32,000 bases of DNA from an uncultured bacterium. Lineage in GTDB: Bacteria > Patescibacteriota > Gracilibacteria > UBA1369 > PNNO01. The stretch is from positions 900,001-932,000 of the forward strand of contig OY969931.1 of NCBI GenBank assembly GCA_963704705.1. The letters run 5' to 3'. Position 1 is the stretch's first letter. Each line of letters begins with the position of its first letter. Both the position numbers and the translations under genes were made by a program. Positions 9,434-19,166 of this stretch are shown here, one piece after another. The notes beneath the pieces are model-generated. The model was not told the origin of the DNA. It saw only the letters and a list, made by a program, of their open reading frames with translations, and did not search any database.

Positions 9434-9462
9434 TTGACTAAACAGGTAAATTTTGGTAAACT
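9434..9462 (+). promoter_or_regulatory. Sigma-70-like promoter with extended -10 for the giant-gene block
   Basis: TTGACT (9434-9439), a 17-nt spacer, then TGgTAAACT (9454-9462), ending ~30 nt upstream of ATG 9493. This is only a consensus match in an AT-rich region. Confidence 0.4.
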
Positions 9463-9492
9463 ATTAGGATATTAATATAAAAACAAAAACCA

Positions 9493-12400
9493 ATGAAAAA
9501 TAGAAATTTACTCAAATTTTTTAATTATTTCGCATTAGAACAGCGAAATTTGTTCTTATGTGAAAGCAAACTTGCATTTAAAAATCCTAAGGCGGGAGTA
9601 AGTGCAAGCGCTGAAAGATTATCAGCAACTGAAAAGAAAGAACTTCAAAATAAGATTGAATTACAGAATAAACAAATACAGGCAAATGAGAAAAAACTAG
9701 AAGAATTTAATAAGATGCTTGATAAATTTTTTGTGAATAAAAGAACATTTGAAGTAAAAAATATTACAAATACAGCTGTTGTGCTTGAAGAGTTGATGGT
9801 TAATTCATCTGATTCCAGTTTATCGAAAGATAAGAACAGACTTGGTTATTTAAGAATGATGGCTAAAAATTTCAAATCTGCAATTCAACCACATGAGGCT
9901 GAATTAAAAAAACATCAACCTTTGAAAATAACTGTAAATCCGGGTGGAGTTATAGATTTTGCTGATTCAAAAAATCACAGATTACTAACAATCGATCTGA
10001 AAAAAGATTCATTTTATGCAGTATCAGTTGAAAATCTTAAGAGAAATATCGCAAATTTAAAAGAAAGAATCAAAGGGAAAAAAGAAGCTGTTGTAAGCCG
10101 CACACGCGAACAACATGTTTCGTATCGTGAAAATCTTGATTTGAAATCAAAATTTGGAAACTTACATGATGCGATTAAAGATTCTCCAAAACTTAAAGGC
10201 AAAGTTAAAGTTGTTCAAAACGGTGATTTCCAGGTTGTTAAATTCCTTGGAAAAAACAAAAAAGAAATTAAGAAAAATGAGTTGGCACTTAAAATTGAAG
10301 ACATTTACAACTTAAGCCTCGTAAACAGTTATCCTGATTCTGTTTTAAGAATTCAGGTTACAAACCCATACCAAGGGACTTATAAAGCAACTTATAACCC
10401 TCAGCGGGGCTCATTTTACATTGATGGCACAACTGAAAGAGCAAAAATTTATAATAACGGAAAAATTAAAGTTCTTGAATTTAGAGTTGTTCCAAAAAAA
10501 CCAAGATCAACAAAAGCAGCAATGAGCGGAGTTAAACCTGCTGAATCAAAGGCGGCTCAGGAAAAAGCAAAAAATGAAGCCTACGAGCAAAGGGAATTTG
10601 AAAAAGATCAAACAAAAGATTACTTATTCGACAAATACTACAAATATATTTTCAAAAAGGACCGTTTTGGCGGACATAAATTACTTCAATCAAAAGAAGA
10701 TTTTAAAAACTGGGGTAGATTATCTCATGTTTTAGGCCCGATTCTTGCTCAACCTCCATTCAACATAAGAAGATCATCATCAGAGCAAAAAAAATATATG
10801 GAGCTTGTAATTCAGGGAACCGGATTTTGGGATCCGAACTGGGAAATACAAGGTAAAGATTTCTTTAAATACGGAGGAATCCAATACAAAGGCGGATATG
10901 ATAAATTTGTTGAAGACTATGAAAAATTAACAAAAAAATACGATAAACTTGAGAAAGAAGGAAAAACTCTATCAGAAAAAGAACTGGAACAGCTAACAAA
11001 ACTCGAAGATATAGCAGTTGGAATCGCAAGAGTTTATGAAGCTCTTCAAACAATGAAACCATTAAAGGCTGATCAGGAATCTGAGAAAGAAAGACTGGAC
11101 AGAACAGTTCTGTTAAATGTACCTAAAGCAAACGAAACTGAATTAAAAGAAGTAAAATCAAATAGATATTTGAATTATTATTTGCCTTTATTGACTCATG
11201 AAAAAGAAACCACTTCTCATCAGGTAAATATTCTTGTTGGGTACTCAACAAACAAAAAACTTGTTCAATTAGTGCAACAGGCGATCAATTCAATTCCAAA
11301 AGGAATGATTAAAGAAGAGGTTTTATGGCAATATAAAATGAATCCTACAAAACTTCTGTTCTTAACATTTGGATTCGATTCATTGGTTGCTAAAGGCGCA
11401 ATTAAAAAAATTGACGATAAAAGATTTGTGCTTACCCAGACTCCTACAAATGCAAACTGGGCAATTGCGGCTTTAAAAATGCAGGGAGCTTCAAAAAACC
11501 CTGAATCAATGCAAAGCTGGGAAAAAGTAAGAGGTAAAGTTGATGCTCATCACAAAGCAGCAAACTTTATTAAAGCAATCTTTGGAGACAAAGAAACAAG
11601 TGTAAAAAATAATTTAAGAAGCAGATGGTCACGATTATGGCATTGGGAATGGGCAGATAAAAAATACGTGAGCATGGAAAATCTTGCTCAGGTTAAAACC
11701 TATGGTAAGAATGATTTCAATTTAGAAGCTGTTGAAAAACGCGGTTATTTGGATATGAAAGGCAAAGTTGCTGAAAGAGCCGGAGAAACCGGAATGTACA
11801 GAATTCCTGAAAAAAATCATGGCGCATTAATTAAAATGACAAATGATTATCTTGCAAAAGGTATTCAGATGACACTCGCAAATGCACCAAAAGGAAAAAG
11901 AAATGAAATTTTAAAAAACCTTACCAAAAAATTCGGAATTAATATTGAATTCGGAAAAGATGACGGAAAAATTGCAGCAGATATAGTTAAATTAATTGGT
12001 GTAAAAGGCTTAAATACTTCTGAACTTACTCCTGATAAAATCAAATTTATCAGACTTGGATTTTTGGAAGAAAGATACTTAAAAGCAGTTGAAAGTAAAG
12101 ATATGACAGATGAATACTTCTCTGCTTCACCTGAAATCAGAAAAATTCAGGACAAACTATATAAACAAGGTATGGCTTTAACTGAATTACCAAGAGTTGA
12201 AGCTGATATACATGCAGGATTAGCAGTGCTTGTTAAAAGCAGAGAAATAGTTGGTCCGGGCGGATTCGCTGGCTTTACTCTTAGATATAAAGCATTAAAC
12301 GGACATGAACTTTACACAACTGTTGGTCTTGGAGGATTACAATCCGGACTTACTGTATATGCAGCATTAGGCGCAAAAGTAAAATTAAGCGAAACATGGG

Positions 12401-18500: not shown

Positions 18501-19091
18501 CAAAGAAATATAGATTTATTTGCAAGATACGATAAAGATTTAAATAACAGAGTTTCTGTTAACGGAAGCAGTGATCTCCCTTCAAATACAAGCAATGTAT
18601 TTGTTAAAGATAACGGAGACCTTGAGTTAAGCGGAACATTCAATAATGGCGCTCAGACAATCGTTGTTCTAAACCACGATGTAAAAATTACAGGCGATGT
18701 TAAGCTTGATGATACATCTGCAATTTTAAGCGACCCAAGAACTATTCCATCGCTTGCAGTAATTGTAATTGGCGGAGACATTCTTGTTCAGCCAAATGTT
18801 GGCGAAACAAACGGCGTATTCTTTACAATGGAAAATGCTGAAGGCAAAGGCGGTCAAATGTGCGAAAAAGACTGCGTTGACGATGATGCATTAAGCAGAT
18901 TCAACGACAAACAATACGTTCACTATGGATCAATCTACGGCGATATCGAACATTTGTTCAAATACAGAACATTCGCAGGCGATCCAACTAAACTTGAAGC
19001 AGCAGTATTAATTAAATTCGATTCACGAATCTTCTTAAATACTCCGCCGCTTCTAAATGAACTTATAAATGTAAGTCAGCAAGTGTTCTAG
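15597..19091 (+). CDS. Secreted giant orphan protein (1164 aa), acidic, Asn/Asp/Thr-rich, Cys-rich
   Basis: Sec-type signal MKTKIKILLISALSLMAVVTASIANA|GW. About 26 Cys by my count, an even number. Repeated modules start with Cys. Residues ~680-830 resemble a DUF11/CARDB-type beta-sandwich only loosely. It starts 21 nt after the previous gene. Confidence 0.8.
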   Translation: MKTKIKILLISALSLMAVVTASIANAGWNASPASGQTCYGQNCKTWHNNGIQREGAYKPGTNFASFNNYTDSTDNSVPKQTYTEQQFLLFEKEYANSSGFPYKTPWDANRATPYNFNSGSSYNINFVNNQPQRVGFWIYMHNNGVENQYPANNTKVKLIPNKISGNTYRPTSTITASNAKPTNVISDVNLTANQDFNLIPKEVWVSREDGDEQMNSAELNDLLSANGLLVGNLRNTDGTFNSSILHYVVVYVEFEAVPQTPPAECKSLNITDPSQLLVTVDQNGFNNENLAFTVDKDNGAVSAYRVRSNNGTITFNNGGSNIQLNEVSNVNQFNATMDGGPSSPNNNETVWVSALRPNGTAWPDCIDYFTVQLEEEQAPVCEVFGTNPGSLGSQQVDIGVTTIELNGPTDTNGDPYRPNGQIPNIRYCYTNDGITFMPYSGNVVHPGGDLRCAIAPLTDPMVVDTTQTGTMTIEVVGAEDDCNDMFKTDFQYGGKCLLLEFRQDEFTNDRTQYCVNLNVEPTVQGYNDHILWQVERDGDTVLSKDTTNTLCIDLDDYNYNFEPGDTLTAQALDIDYEDAACEDSIGSRNLVCDSMDLDKAHFERGQDNEVCITDINPDDYPANEVDLTTDSGESDTVPVDEDGCFVINENLLTDANRVDVFLADKCEDSLTREVKPPTFSKNVKDQDVGAVFAHRAIANWTDEKVFYQIKYEHKDDTAQDVTITDTIGTDDYIQGYIADVNDSDLSNNEEGGRIYYDDGSMNVYVEGEGNIGNCEDTNDNICYYGDIGSTGGVTVKNVPPRREVVVSYTGEIVDSSVNPSNCSKPDGLGNDICGEVYPNTAEFEDETPFSGRDKAEVVIPCPFFIIRSGGEVFMENPFDYGVDTLACSEIENVPSPFIVPDYTPPQTTPSTGAPEGIALIKTLDDRLCKSDSAQEAGYGGVSRASSLICEVTLKTSEELTQYVISQNIQRNIDLFARYDKDLNNRVSVNGSSDLPSNTSNVFVKDNGDLELSGTFNNGAQTIVVLNHDVKITGDVKLDDTSAILSDPRTIPSLAVIVIGGDILVQPNVGETNGVFFTMENAEGKGGQMCEKDCVDDDALSRFNDKQYVHYGSIYGDIEHLFKYRTFAGDPTKLEAAVLIKFDSRIFLNTPPLLNELINVSQQVF

Positions 19092-19135
19092 TCCTAGTCT
19101 TATAGGAACGCGGCTTACTTACAAAACTTATATAC

Positions 19136-19166
19136 GCAAATTGCTAGCTAAATGCTAGCTTTTTGC
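19136..19166 (+). terminator. Intrinsic-terminator-like hairpin after the three-gene block
   Basis: GCAAA-tt-GCTAGC-taaat-GCTAGC-tt-TTTGC, with a T5 run on the 3' side, 45 nt after the stop at 19091. The stem is short and AT-containing, so its strength is uncertain. Confidence 0.4.

Follow-up and report, generated by a model that had tools for sequence, protein, structure and literature searches.

We infer that three neighbouring plus-strand genes of a Peregrinibacteria/Peribacteria genome probably encode an undescribed envelope or cell-contact assembly. Peregrinibacteria are uncultivated bacteria with small genomes, which are presumed to live at the expense of other cells. The genes A (1850 aa), B (165 aa) and C (1164 aa) make up 30% of the window, i.e. 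of the whole 32-kb stretch of DNA that was analysed. The unit accounts for 0.7% of the 1.37-Mb genome, and reaches up to ~16 kb in relatives. The more specific reading, that the block is one operon whose products form an envelope or surface assembly particular to the Peregrinibacteria lineage, is preferred tentatively, at close to but below an even chance.

Organization of the A-B-C unit

The genes and regulatory elements of the unit are located as follows:

9434..9462, plus strand: unit promoter, with the -35 box TTGACT (9434-9439), a 17-nt spacer and the extended -10 TGg-TAAACT (9454-9462); conserved in relatives
9493..15045, plus strand: gene A, encoding a basic protein of 1850 aa that is rich in Lys, the first member of a family of giant proteins
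15078..15575, plus strand: gene B, encoding a 165-aa bitopic protein with the tail APSRH (15558-15572)
15597..19091, plus strand: gene C, encoding a 1164-aa acidic exported protein
19143..19164, plus strand: intrinsic terminator, a GCTAGC-taaat-GCTAGC hairpin (19143-19159) followed by TTTTT
19319..19347, plus strand: separate holA promoter, TTGCCC-17-TATAAT, of which CTTG...TTATAAT is invariant in four genomes

ORF analysis bore out the initial annotation of a trio separated by only 32 nt (A/B) and 21 nt (B/C), and spacers of 17-35 nt were found in most loci of relatives. The ORF of A reaches just four codons upstream of its ATG. Consensus-level promoter matches occur at chance frequency (27 sites observed vs 36 expected in shuffles); the alignment with three relatives (L015, L016 and L002), whose A proteins are 53-89% identical, showed that the -35 box and the extended -10 proposed at 9434-9462 are near-invariant. 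The proposed terminator is indeed a hairpin with a TTTTT run, but it starts 51 nt past the stop codon of C instead of 45 nt. The hairpin is identical in L015, and another hairpin with a T-run occupies the same position in L016 and L002. With the promoter at its start and a terminator at its end kept in relatives, the description of the region as a single bounded block holds, and the own promoter of holA marks the end of the unit.

Distribution, synteny and selection

Between tpiA and holA, 13 related genomes carry the A-B-C trio, which is syntenic and co-conserved in them. In six far more distant genomes (L017-L021 and the P0053 contig) the same slot contains A and C without B, and the homology of C extends to all of these loci (E 4e-18 to 2e-107). 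None of the related genomes examined was without the locus, and A and C form a pair that keeps one fixed place throughout the lineage, distant Peregrinibacteria included.

The initial annotation had found no familiar motif in the three products, and the searches agreed: A, B and C had no match in Pfam, NCBIfam, PHROGs, PADLOC or the PDB sequences. Their supposed orphan status stands with respect to function, as no characterised family was matched, but not with respect to lineage, as homologues occur across the Peregrinibacteria. An anti-phage defence or phage origin was likewise without any PADLOC, PHROGs or phage-genome match for A, B and C.

The dN/dS values are 0.11-0.24 for A, 0.26-0.34 for B and 0.14-0.24 for C, compared with 0.02-0.13 for the flanking housekeeping genes. 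These indicate that A, B and C are real genes, which evolve 2-4 times faster than their neighbours; the selection that had been supposed to maintain the block is purifying throughout (0.11-0.34).

Since the whole region is collinear, unrelated housekeeping genes included, synteny by itself is weak evidence of functional linkage. The genes tpiA, holA, glnA, trmB, gatCA and others have unrelated functions and keep the same order in all loci, and A, B and C might similarly be functionally unrelated neighbours held together by a frozen regional gene order. This explanation is disfavoured as highly improbable: the three genes lie on one strand, only tens of nucleotides apart, between a single conserved promoter and a single terminator; their evolutionary rates are similarly elevated; A and C always co-occur; and the tails of A and B co-vary.

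Protein C: an exported Ig-like array

Three parts were distinguished in protein C:

15597-15674, plus strand: signal peptide, residues 1-26, ending in ANA before G
15954-17606, plus strand: beta-sandwich domain array, ~residues 120-670
17634-19088, plus strand: most conserved part, residues 680-1164

Protein C has a pI of 4.2 and 26 Cys (2.2%), 22 of which are invariant. Its fold matches include the complement C3 MG-domain, DSCAM and FN3 arrays (E~1e-10). Conservation climbs along the chain toward the C-terminus, and the C-terminal domain is recognisable at the distant loci (E 3e-71 to 1e-96). C is a Sec-exported, disulfide-rich Ig-like array, with a variable N-terminal chain and a conserved C-terminal domain. 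The signal peptide, the invariant Cys and the Ig-like domains together support its initial description as a Cys-rich, presumably extracellular protein with a Sec signal.

A sortase-anchored adhesin was rejected, as neither an LPXTG-type motif nor a C-terminal TM segment is present in A, B or C. The C-terminal ends are LINVSQQVF in C, PPSRH in A and APSRH in B, and the combination of a signal peptide with tandem Ig-like domains was found in C only.

Together with A, protein C might also self-assemble into a regular, S-layer-like coat, with the tails as anchoring peptides. C is an acidic, exported beta-sandwich protein, with Sap of Bacillus anthracis among its fold matches (rank 48), and the locus, with its conserved promoter and terminator, is in every genome examined. 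However, hundreds of generic Ig-array matches score at least as well as Sap, and no SLH, CWB2 or other known wall-anchoring domain was found in A, B or C. As many as 26 Cys are also unusual for S-layer proteins. Moreover, a separate S-layer gene set has been reported for Peribacteria (PMC4736985). Such a coat is considered very unlikely.

Peribacteria have many large exported Cys-rich proteins, for which a role in attachment was proposed (Anantharaman et al. 2016, PMC4736985). Protein C resembles this class in its length (>1000 aa), signal peptide, many Cys and lack of a functional prediction; whereas the published set averages 7.2 ± 2.4% Cys (C, 2.2%), and is located largely in a 14-gene cluster (PMC4736985). 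Protein A falls outside this class, with 0.16% Cys and no signal peptide. The available portions of the Peribacteria account (PMC4736985) describe no A-B-C locus, no signal-less partner such as A, and no A-C pairing.

Protein B and the matched tails of A and B

Protein B consists of a basic N-terminus, one TM segment (~residues 11-31) and a beta-rich ectodomain. According to the charges flanking the TM segment (positive-inside rule), B is a predicted N-in/C-out membrane anchor. This agrees with the anchored protein of the initial annotation, whereas the likeness to cohesins that was also proposed stayed below the threshold: the Cohesin model (PF00963) gave weak matches in only two of six B homologues (best E 0.0018), and the window's own B matched neither this model nor any PDB sequence. 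Like the cohesin scaffoldins of cellulosomes, B might be a small anchored beta-sandwich by which a larger protein is held outside the cell; however, its candidate ligand is a C-terminal peptide of 4-6 residues, not a dockerin, and neither a dockerin nor any other Pfam domain was found in A, C or their homologues. B was not found at the six distant A-C loci. It is a later addition restricted to the subclade of the window, and a model that requires B can therefore not be general.

The tail of B has a counterpart in A:

14959..15042, plus strand: C-terminal tail of A, a Pro-rich tandem PEKPY(N/T)PPSRH, ending in PSRH

Across genomes, the final 3-6 residues of A change in step with those of B (p<5e-5). 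The last six residues share 34/66 identities, vs 9.0 ± 3.7 in permutations, and the final residue is the same in A and B in 9 of 11 genomes (p=5e-5). Further matched pairs are PPSRN/APTRN and PPSRH/APARH (13 genomes in all), and the tail extension is present or absent jointly in both proteins. The tail codons differ (10-16 of 30 nt identical), and co-variation without DNA identity implies a common docking partner. The tails end with a hydrophobic residue (F, L, I or V) in most genomes, with RH or RN in the subclade of the window, and with RR in L012. PDZ-type pockets bind carboxy-terminal peptides, and may serve as an analogy only, in that the tails mostly end hydrophobic and are matched between A and B; searches of A, B and C gave no PDZ-like domain. 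This co-evolution of the tails appears to be new; it is absent from the available portions of the account of Peribacteria by Anantharaman et al. 2016 (PMC4736985).

Protein A and its family

Besides the tail, three regions of protein A were delimited:

9562..9579, plus strand: N-terminal motif, residues 24-29, ESKLAF, which is the window's version of [E/K][N/K]R[L/F]VF
12211..12906, plus strand: Gly-rich module, residues 907-1138, a porin-like beta-barrel candidate
13663..14715, plus strand: helical domain, residues ~1391-1741, the best-modelled part of A (AF2 pLDDT 70-86)

Protein A has a pI of 9.7, 11.9% Lys and 3 Cys (0.16%), and neither an N-terminal hydrophobic stretch nor a signal peptide was found from its sequence properties. 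Composition and sequence agree with the initial picture of a signal-less, Lys-rich protein with three Cys and a tandem Pro-rich C-terminus. A basic protein with so few Cys might also be cytoplasmic, which speaks against a surface reading.

An exhaustive profile search of 1.84 billion proteins (1.84e9) assigned 96 clusters to the A family, mostly giants of 1400-3300 aa. The family, 21 distant members included, had no Pfam or PDB match. The N-terminal half is variable in length, and the C-terminal ~1000 aa are conserved. In most full-length members the [E/K][N/K]R[L/F]VF motif is found no further than ~35 aa from the N-terminus. A pattern that was written post hoc from the data matched 30/71 members vs 0.6% of control windows. 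The helical domain had no structural match in PDB or BFVD.

The Gly-rich module contains two hydrophobic segments (residues 1004-1023 and 1111-1137), and has the highest period-2 hydrophobic moment of A. AF2 predicted 8 + 2 antiparallel strands of 11-13 aa each (pLDDT 55-78), which are interrupted by a four-helix insert of ~80 aa (residues 1029-1108); the AF2 models were poor overall (mean pLDDT 56 and 59). The best PDB fold matches were KdgM, NanC and a designed 10-strand TM barrel, with TM-scores of 0.5-0.6 and E values of 0.01-0.2 (Foldseek: KdgM, TM-score 0.59, E 0.011; designed TMB10, TM-score 0.61, E 0.24), and a fold search of A against a viral library likewise placed OMP-like barrels at the top. 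The Pfam model OMP_b-brl (PF13505) scored a sub-threshold 19.1 bits (cut-off 28.7, E=0.0016), and was matched at E<=0.01 by only two of eight A homologues. Every barrel match, in sequence or fold, was thus below significance (Foldseek E at least 0.01). From the AF2 model and these weak matches, residues 907-1138 look like a membrane beta-barrel module, in line with the strand-like hydrophobic centre that was initially noted in A. The module is similar to the KdgM, NanC and OMP_b-brl porins in composition, strand length and the predicted antiparallel meander; whereas it differs from KdgM and NanC in its internal position, the absence of a signal peptide, the 80-aa helical insert and the sub-threshold scores. 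No gene for a BamA-type insertase was found within the 32-kb window.

Type V secretion (autotransporter, intimin/invasin) was rejected for A, which has no signal peptide and an internal, not terminal, barrel; intimin gave a weak fold match to the module (E 0.36). An RTX or other type I-secreted giant was also rejected, as A had no RTX Pfam match and the neighbouring genes are all housekeeping. What A has in common with the RTX class is limited to the missing signal peptide, the scarcity of Cys and a C-terminal peptide that might act as a signal. The OmpM/SlpA tethers of Negativicutes and Deinococcus-Thermus carry a signal peptide, SLH, and a C-terminal barrel of many more strands. Like A, these tethers combine a long helical protein with a membrane barrel as an envelope element; however, their signal peptide, SLH and many-stranded C-terminal barrel all have no equivalent in A.

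The same features could be explained if A stays inside, on the inner membrane face, by means of its Gly-rich module, with C as the outer partner and B as the link. Such a scaffold would shape or stiffen the cell's own envelope, without contacting another cell. It would suit a basic protein with few Cys and no signal peptide, and a locus that is vertically inherited beside cell-envelope and replication genes in every genome, behaving as a lineage core gene, not an accessory one. We regard it as rather unlikely, since the tail of B, predicted to be extracytoplasmic, matches that of A, which is hard to explain if the latter is cytoplasmic. The evolutionary rate of A is also as high as that of the exported C, and its length differs almost two-fold among homologues, which is more typical of exposed proteins. 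In an even-stranded barrel, moreover, the two flanks come out on the same side, so that A could not span the membrane with domains on both faces.

An even strand count would, on the other hand, leave the soluble parts on the cis side, as for insertion from outside. A might thus be an exported pore-forming effector, whose porin-like module opens a nutrient conduit in the outer membrane of a host; C would be the adhesin that delivers A, and B would retain or prime A via the common tail. A porin-like module in a Cys-poor giant without a signal peptide is consistent with this, and the group, which cannot make fatty acids or most amino acids, presumably relies on other cells (PMC4736985, PMC8080830). 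Nevertheless, the barrel evidence is sub-threshold, the locus contains no export machinery, lysis or immunity-like gene, and there is no known host. We also know of no characterised toxin with a single-chain 10-strand barrel buried mid-protein, and an effector of this kind seems unlikely.

Proposed assembly at the cell surface

In the preferred reading of a lineage-specific surface assembly, C would be an exposed stalk stiffened by disulfides, and its conserved C-terminal domain might be the docking end near the cell. B would anchor the assembly to the cytoplasmic membrane in the subclade of the window. The tails of A and B may fit one fast-evolving binding site, located either on the conserved domain of C or on B's own ectodomain. 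As the tail of B is predicted to be extracellular, the C-terminal end of A is probably outside too, and A would then be exported by a route that needs no classical Sec signal peptide; the conserved motif near the N-terminus of A is a candidate export or docking signal. The porin-like barrel might be the membrane-active part of A. The lineage is regarded as having no outer membrane, and the likeliest target of the barrel would be the membrane of a neighbouring or partner cell, or an unrecognised outer layer of the cell's own envelope. The most complete version, in which a cell believed to have a single membrane exports the Sec-less A via its N-terminal peptide, the barrel breaches the outer membrane of the partner, and the lineage-specific A/B tail acts as an address that holds A on the Ig stalk, is distinctly unlikely.

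Related giant proteins and implications

The giants of Vampirococcus/Absconditabacteria (1392-4163 aa) are thought to form a fibrous cell surface and to bind the host (PMC8080830). Absconditabacteria is a sister lineage, with giant surface proteins in common (PMC8080830). The likeness is one of description. Most of those giants have recognised interaction domains; none was found in A, B or C. A role in attachment to, or insertion into, a partner cell, as the initial annotation suggested, would agree with the general proposals for the large exported proteins of the group (PMC4736985, PMC8080830).

The presence of the locus in all related genomes examined, its fixed place through deep divergence and the lack of any characterised match strongly favour it as a candidate for an envelope structure that defines the group. 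A barrel inside a signal-less giant is relevant to the question of whether an outer membrane to insert into is provided by these bacteria or by their partners, and the co-evolving tail peptides of A and B would map the assembly. If true, Sec-less export combined with the barrel reading would represent a new contact-dependent conduit and a new export route, core to a candidate phylum.

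Organization and boundaries of the A-B-C unit

The window has a G+C content of about 34%, and its genes are of the housekeeping type typical of a small-genome bacterium. Three adjacent plus-strand genes (A, B and C) lie between tpiA and holA with intergenic gaps of 32 and 21 nt, as claimed in the initial annotation.

Gene block and neighbouring features in the window
5' of the block, minus strand: rpoD, dnaG, GT4 (MraY/WecA-like) transferase, truB, Mur ligase, riboflavin kinase, Wzy_C protein, hpf, tpiA
9434-9462: putative promoter of the unit
9493-15045, plus strand: gene A, 1850 aa
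15078-15575, plus strand: gene B, 165 aa
15597-19091, plus strand: gene C, 1164 aa
19143-19159: hairpin, followed by TTTTT
19170-19185: palindrome TTCCTCCCGGGAGGAA
19267-19285: palindrome TTTCCGTCC-CA-GGACGAAA
19303-19316: palindrome CGATCCCGGGATCG
3' of the block: holA, glnA, trmB, gatCA, ftsX, recO, relA/spoT

The putative promoter (TTGACT-17-TAAACT with a TG extension) was by itself no better than chance, with 27 consensus-like sites observed and 36 expected in shuffles; but it was accepted because phylogenetic footprinting revealed conserved boxes. When the tpiA-A spacers of four genomes (A protein identity 53-89%) are aligned, TTGACTAA does not vary and the TGGTAAACT box hardly varies, which supports the extended -10 promoter proposed earlier. 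A hairpin with a T-run follows C in all four genomes; the hairpin is the same in the relative L015, and L016 and L002 have another one. In the window it starts 51 nt from the stop codon, rather than the 45 nt first given. An invariant holA promoter lies directly 3' of the hairpin and T-run in the four genomes, and no further terminator-like site was found on the plus strand inside the block. The block is accepted as a predicted promoter-to-terminator unit.

Some variable or conserved elements were also observed nearby. At 9386-9413, 5' of the A promoter, TTTACTAAAAATCTC...TTTTCACAG is almost invariant in the four genomes and may serve as a shared regulatory element or as the promoter of the divergent tpiA. 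The AT-rich spacer that separates the terminator from the holA promoter (19166-19318) has an extra ~125 nt with no counterpart in L016 and L002; this addition holds the three GC-rich palindromes and may represent the insertion of a small repeat element. The Wzy_C gene (6681-8072; O-antigen ligase/O-oligosaccharyltransferase family) and the GT4 initiating transferase are always just 5' of the unit, in the window and in all related loci.

Within the trmB-gatA interval (22703-24290, minus strand) are small ORFs of 111, 81 and 89 aa without family match and an AdoMetDC-like gene (23071-23424). Its content varies among relatives, with a phage lambda Ea47-like gene in L015, and it looks like a local variation hotspot within an otherwise collinear region. 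The relA/spoT gene is in two ORFs in different frames (28494-30394, minus strand), one for the HD hydrolase (29750-30394, 214 aa) and one for the synthetase-TGS portion (28494-29744, 416 aa); it is a single gene of 638-658 aa in relatives. Either the gene is truly divided or a frameshift, due to a sequencing error or to pseudogene formation, accounts for the break. A 491-aa ORF (30451-31926, minus strand) had no match in Pfam/NCBIfam, and the related locus L001 has a 522-aa gene at the equivalent position, making it another conserved unknown. Neither Rfam families nor tRNAs were detected in the window.

Distribution and selection

With a word-based protein search, A had 5 relatives, B 3 and C 13; the named ones were annotated as 'hypothetical protein' of Patescibacteria group bacterium, and the copy of C from the window was traced to a 1.37-Mb NCBI/ENA contig. 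The C profile, with one genome per species, recovered 10 loci in Candidatus Peregrinibacteria or Peribacteria. A synteny check of the trio, which the initial annotation had proposed, showed co-occurrence in the same order, tpiA (minus strand) / A B C / holA, in 13 of 13 distinct genomes with DNA. The whole region is collinear, including unrelated genes, and therefore adjacency alone says little on function; that A, B and C are functionally unrelated neighbours is an unlikely rival reading, and the matched tails of A and B (see below) count against it.

When 1.84 billion cluster representatives were searched exhaustively with an HMM of the last 1000 residues of A, 96 clusters passed E<=1e-3, and 72 of these also E<=1e-10. 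Most are 1400-3300 aa long, and the matching part is their own C-terminal ~1000 residues. Six distant members were inspected (E 1e-49 to 1e-11), and all six occupy the same chromosomal slot (...dnaG-GT4-truB-Mur ligase-ribF-Wzy-(hpf)-tpiA / A / large gene), with holA next in the four contigs reaching far enough. Of the large genes in L017-L021, those of L017-L020 are homologous to C (E 4e-18 to 2e-107) and share mainly C residues ~770-1156 and several copies of the Ig-like unit; the truncated one in L021 had no match to C. B was not detected in the inspected distant loci. Because L017-L020 keep A and a C homologue at the same slot, with no B detected, A and C are an ancient, vertically inherited pair of the Peregrinibacteria/Peribacteria lineage, and B is an addition in the subclade of the window. 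The description of the three proteins as orphans thus holds as regards known families, but not in view of the 96 A-family clusters and the distant C homologues.

In B's stead, L017 (3461-3916, 151 aa) and L018 (9290-9967, 225 aa) have a small ORF 5' of A, without TM segment or similarity to B. Near the L020 locus is a trypsin-like protease with an SLH domain (25483-26898), which suggests that the lineage has SLH-type anchoring to the wall.

The dN/dS values against two relatives were 0.11-0.24 for A, 0.26-0.34 for B and 0.14-0.24 for C; those of hpf, tpiA, holA, glnA and trmB were 0.02-0.10, and that of wzy 0.11-0.13. In a wider set, the identities were 26-53% (A), 29-40% (B) and 39-54% (C), and 56-79% for tpiA and 63-85% for holA. 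A, B and C are real, constrained and fast-evolving genes, a pattern usual for exposed proteins.

Family searches

A, B and C had no match above threshold in Pfam, NCBIfam, PHROGs or PADLOC. Pfam was likewise negative for the homologues scanned (13 of C, 8 + 21 of A and 6 of B) and for the distant C-like genes, and PDB sequence-profile searches with four alignments gave zero matches; the reported absence of any familiar motif was therefore confirmed. In the literature searched, neither the A-B-C locus nor the A family was described, and the same was true of the barrel module and the tail code. The membership tests placed the unit in no known family.

Several specific relationships were also rejected. 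A phage origin was ruled out, with no tblastn match among 50,697 phage records; profile-profile comparison detected no homology of B to the Ig domains of C or to any part of A; and a type IV pilin identity was rejected for B, whose alignment has neither the conserved G|F cleavage motif nor Glu at +5. BLAST self-comparison of A and of C showed no internal sequence repeats.

Sequence and structural features of the proteins

Computed properties bore out the compositional claims made for all three proteins. C (pI 4.2, 26 Cys) has a canonical signal peptide ending ANA|G, in agreement with the acidic, Sec-exported protein first described. In its AF2 model (mean pLDDT 59), beta-sandwich domains follow one another along residues ~120-670 (pLDDT 70-87) and the remainder is poorly modelled; the Foldseek matches number in the hundreds and are generic Ig, FN3 and macroglobulin-domain arrays (E~1e-10). 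Across 13 homologues, with identity down to 38%, 22 Cys are invariant, which points to probable disulfides. Conservation increases toward the C-terminus, and the C-terminal part persists in distant lineages. An S-layer-like coat is a rival reading for such an exported domain array; no wall- or membrane-anchoring motif was found in C. In L012 (7529-12796) the C homologue is enlarged and split into three consecutive ORFs (1316, 139 and 299 aa), which could reflect decay, frameshifts or a faulty assembly; neither A nor B is broken there.

B has a single N-terminal TM segment, a basic N-terminus and a net acidic post-TM flank, and is therefore predicted to be N-in/C-out. Its ectodomain is beta-rich by sequence pattern. 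The small, N-terminally anchored architecture stood as annotated; the cohesin likeness is a lead, with sub-threshold matches in 2 of 6 homologues (best E 0.0018) and none in the copy of the window.

A (pI 9.7, 11.9% Lys, 3 Cys) lacks a hydrophobic N-terminus, contains two hydrophobic stretches rich in Gly and ends in a Pro-rich tandem, in line with the first description. Its AF2 model covers residues 851-1850 (mean pLDDT 56).

Modelled segments of A (AF2)
907-1027: strand module, eight strands of 7-13 aa
1029-1108: four-helix insert
1115-1138: two further strands, then a small mixed domain
~1391-1741: helical domain, pLDDT 70-86
Terminus: hairpins around an invariant GxYLKCxNGT

Structural neighbours were found for the strand module only, and all are membrane barrels: in the PDB, KdgM (E 0.011, TM-score 0.59), NanC, a designed 10-strand barrel, OprD-family porins, intimin and Ail, and in a viral library, phage OMP-like barrels. 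These residues also give a sub-threshold match to Pfam OMP_b-brl and are where composition and period-2 amphipathicity peak; distant members keep the Gly-rich module. The module is more likely than not a membrane-type barrel; the even strand number would place the rest of A on one side of the membrane. A host-directed pore is a rival reading of such a barrel.

The N-terminal half of A differs in length within the family, from about 800 to about 2300 residues. The extreme N-terminus carries a recurrent motif, ..[E/K][N/K]R[L/F]VF.. (CESKLAF in the window); the pattern, written after the data were seen, occurs in the first 50 residues of 30 of 71 long members vs 0.6% of control windows. The small ORF 5' of A in L018 starts with ..SSRLIF.., the same motif.

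Matched C-terminal tails of A and B

The tails of A and B are alike within each trio genome, and the endings differ from genome to genome.

C-terminal tails of A and B in the window and related loci
Window: A PPSRH, B APSRH
L015: A PPSRH, B APARH
L016: A PPSRN, B APTRN
L001: A SDTDF, B SSIDF
L004: A NSTF, B EKSF
L005: A SSTEI, B DPNEI
L007: A DNSI, B FNSL
L009: A EGTGNL, B EGLGNL
L010: A SGTGDL, B EGTGSL
L011: A DSSV, B PFGV
L012: A AAGRR, B AAGRR

Over the last six positions, 34 A-B identities were observed vs 9.0 +/- 3.7 with B shuffled among genomes; 0 of 20,000 shuffles reached this value, and the excess persisted without the two closest pairs, with p-values serving as a guide only because the shuffling takes no account of how the genomes are related. 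Both proteins have, in most genomes, P-x-R-[H/E/N] right after the last hydrophobic strand, and a low-complexity extension after it is present or absent jointly. The end of C (..Q.VF) shows no co-variation. The tail codons differ between A and B (10-16 of 30 nt identical; for PSRH, agc-agg-cat in A vs tct-cgt-cat in B), which argues for protein-level selection and rules out recent gene conversion; ancient conversion followed by selection is a possible origin.

The simplest reading of the sequences is that a single fast-evolving site recognises both tails. Since the tail of B would be outside the membrane, the C-terminus of A is argued to be outside as well; A as an internal scaffold, which its missing signal peptide would allow, is a rival reading. 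Pro/Ser/Thr-rich tails of this kind resemble low-complexity sites glycosylated by O-oligosaccharyltransferases in other bacteria, and by analogy a link to the nearby Wzy_C protein is possible.

Possible function of the unit

The three-gene block was confirmed as observed. Its initial interpretation is partly supported: the unit, its co-conservation and the export signal of C stand, and the orphan status is narrowed to function. In Peribacteria, attachment was proposed as the role of large exported Cys-rich proteins (PMC4736985), and in a sister group as that of giant surface proteins (PMC8080830). In the favoured reading, C would be an exported stalk, B a subclade-specific membrane anchor or adaptor, and A a giant exported without a Sec signal peptide, whose tail would dock beside that of B and whose barrel would be the membrane-active element; a role in contact with another cell is possible. 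At a little short of even chances, the A-B-C unit would be an undescribed envelope or cell-surface assembly with a C stalk, a B anchor and a membrane-active giant A.
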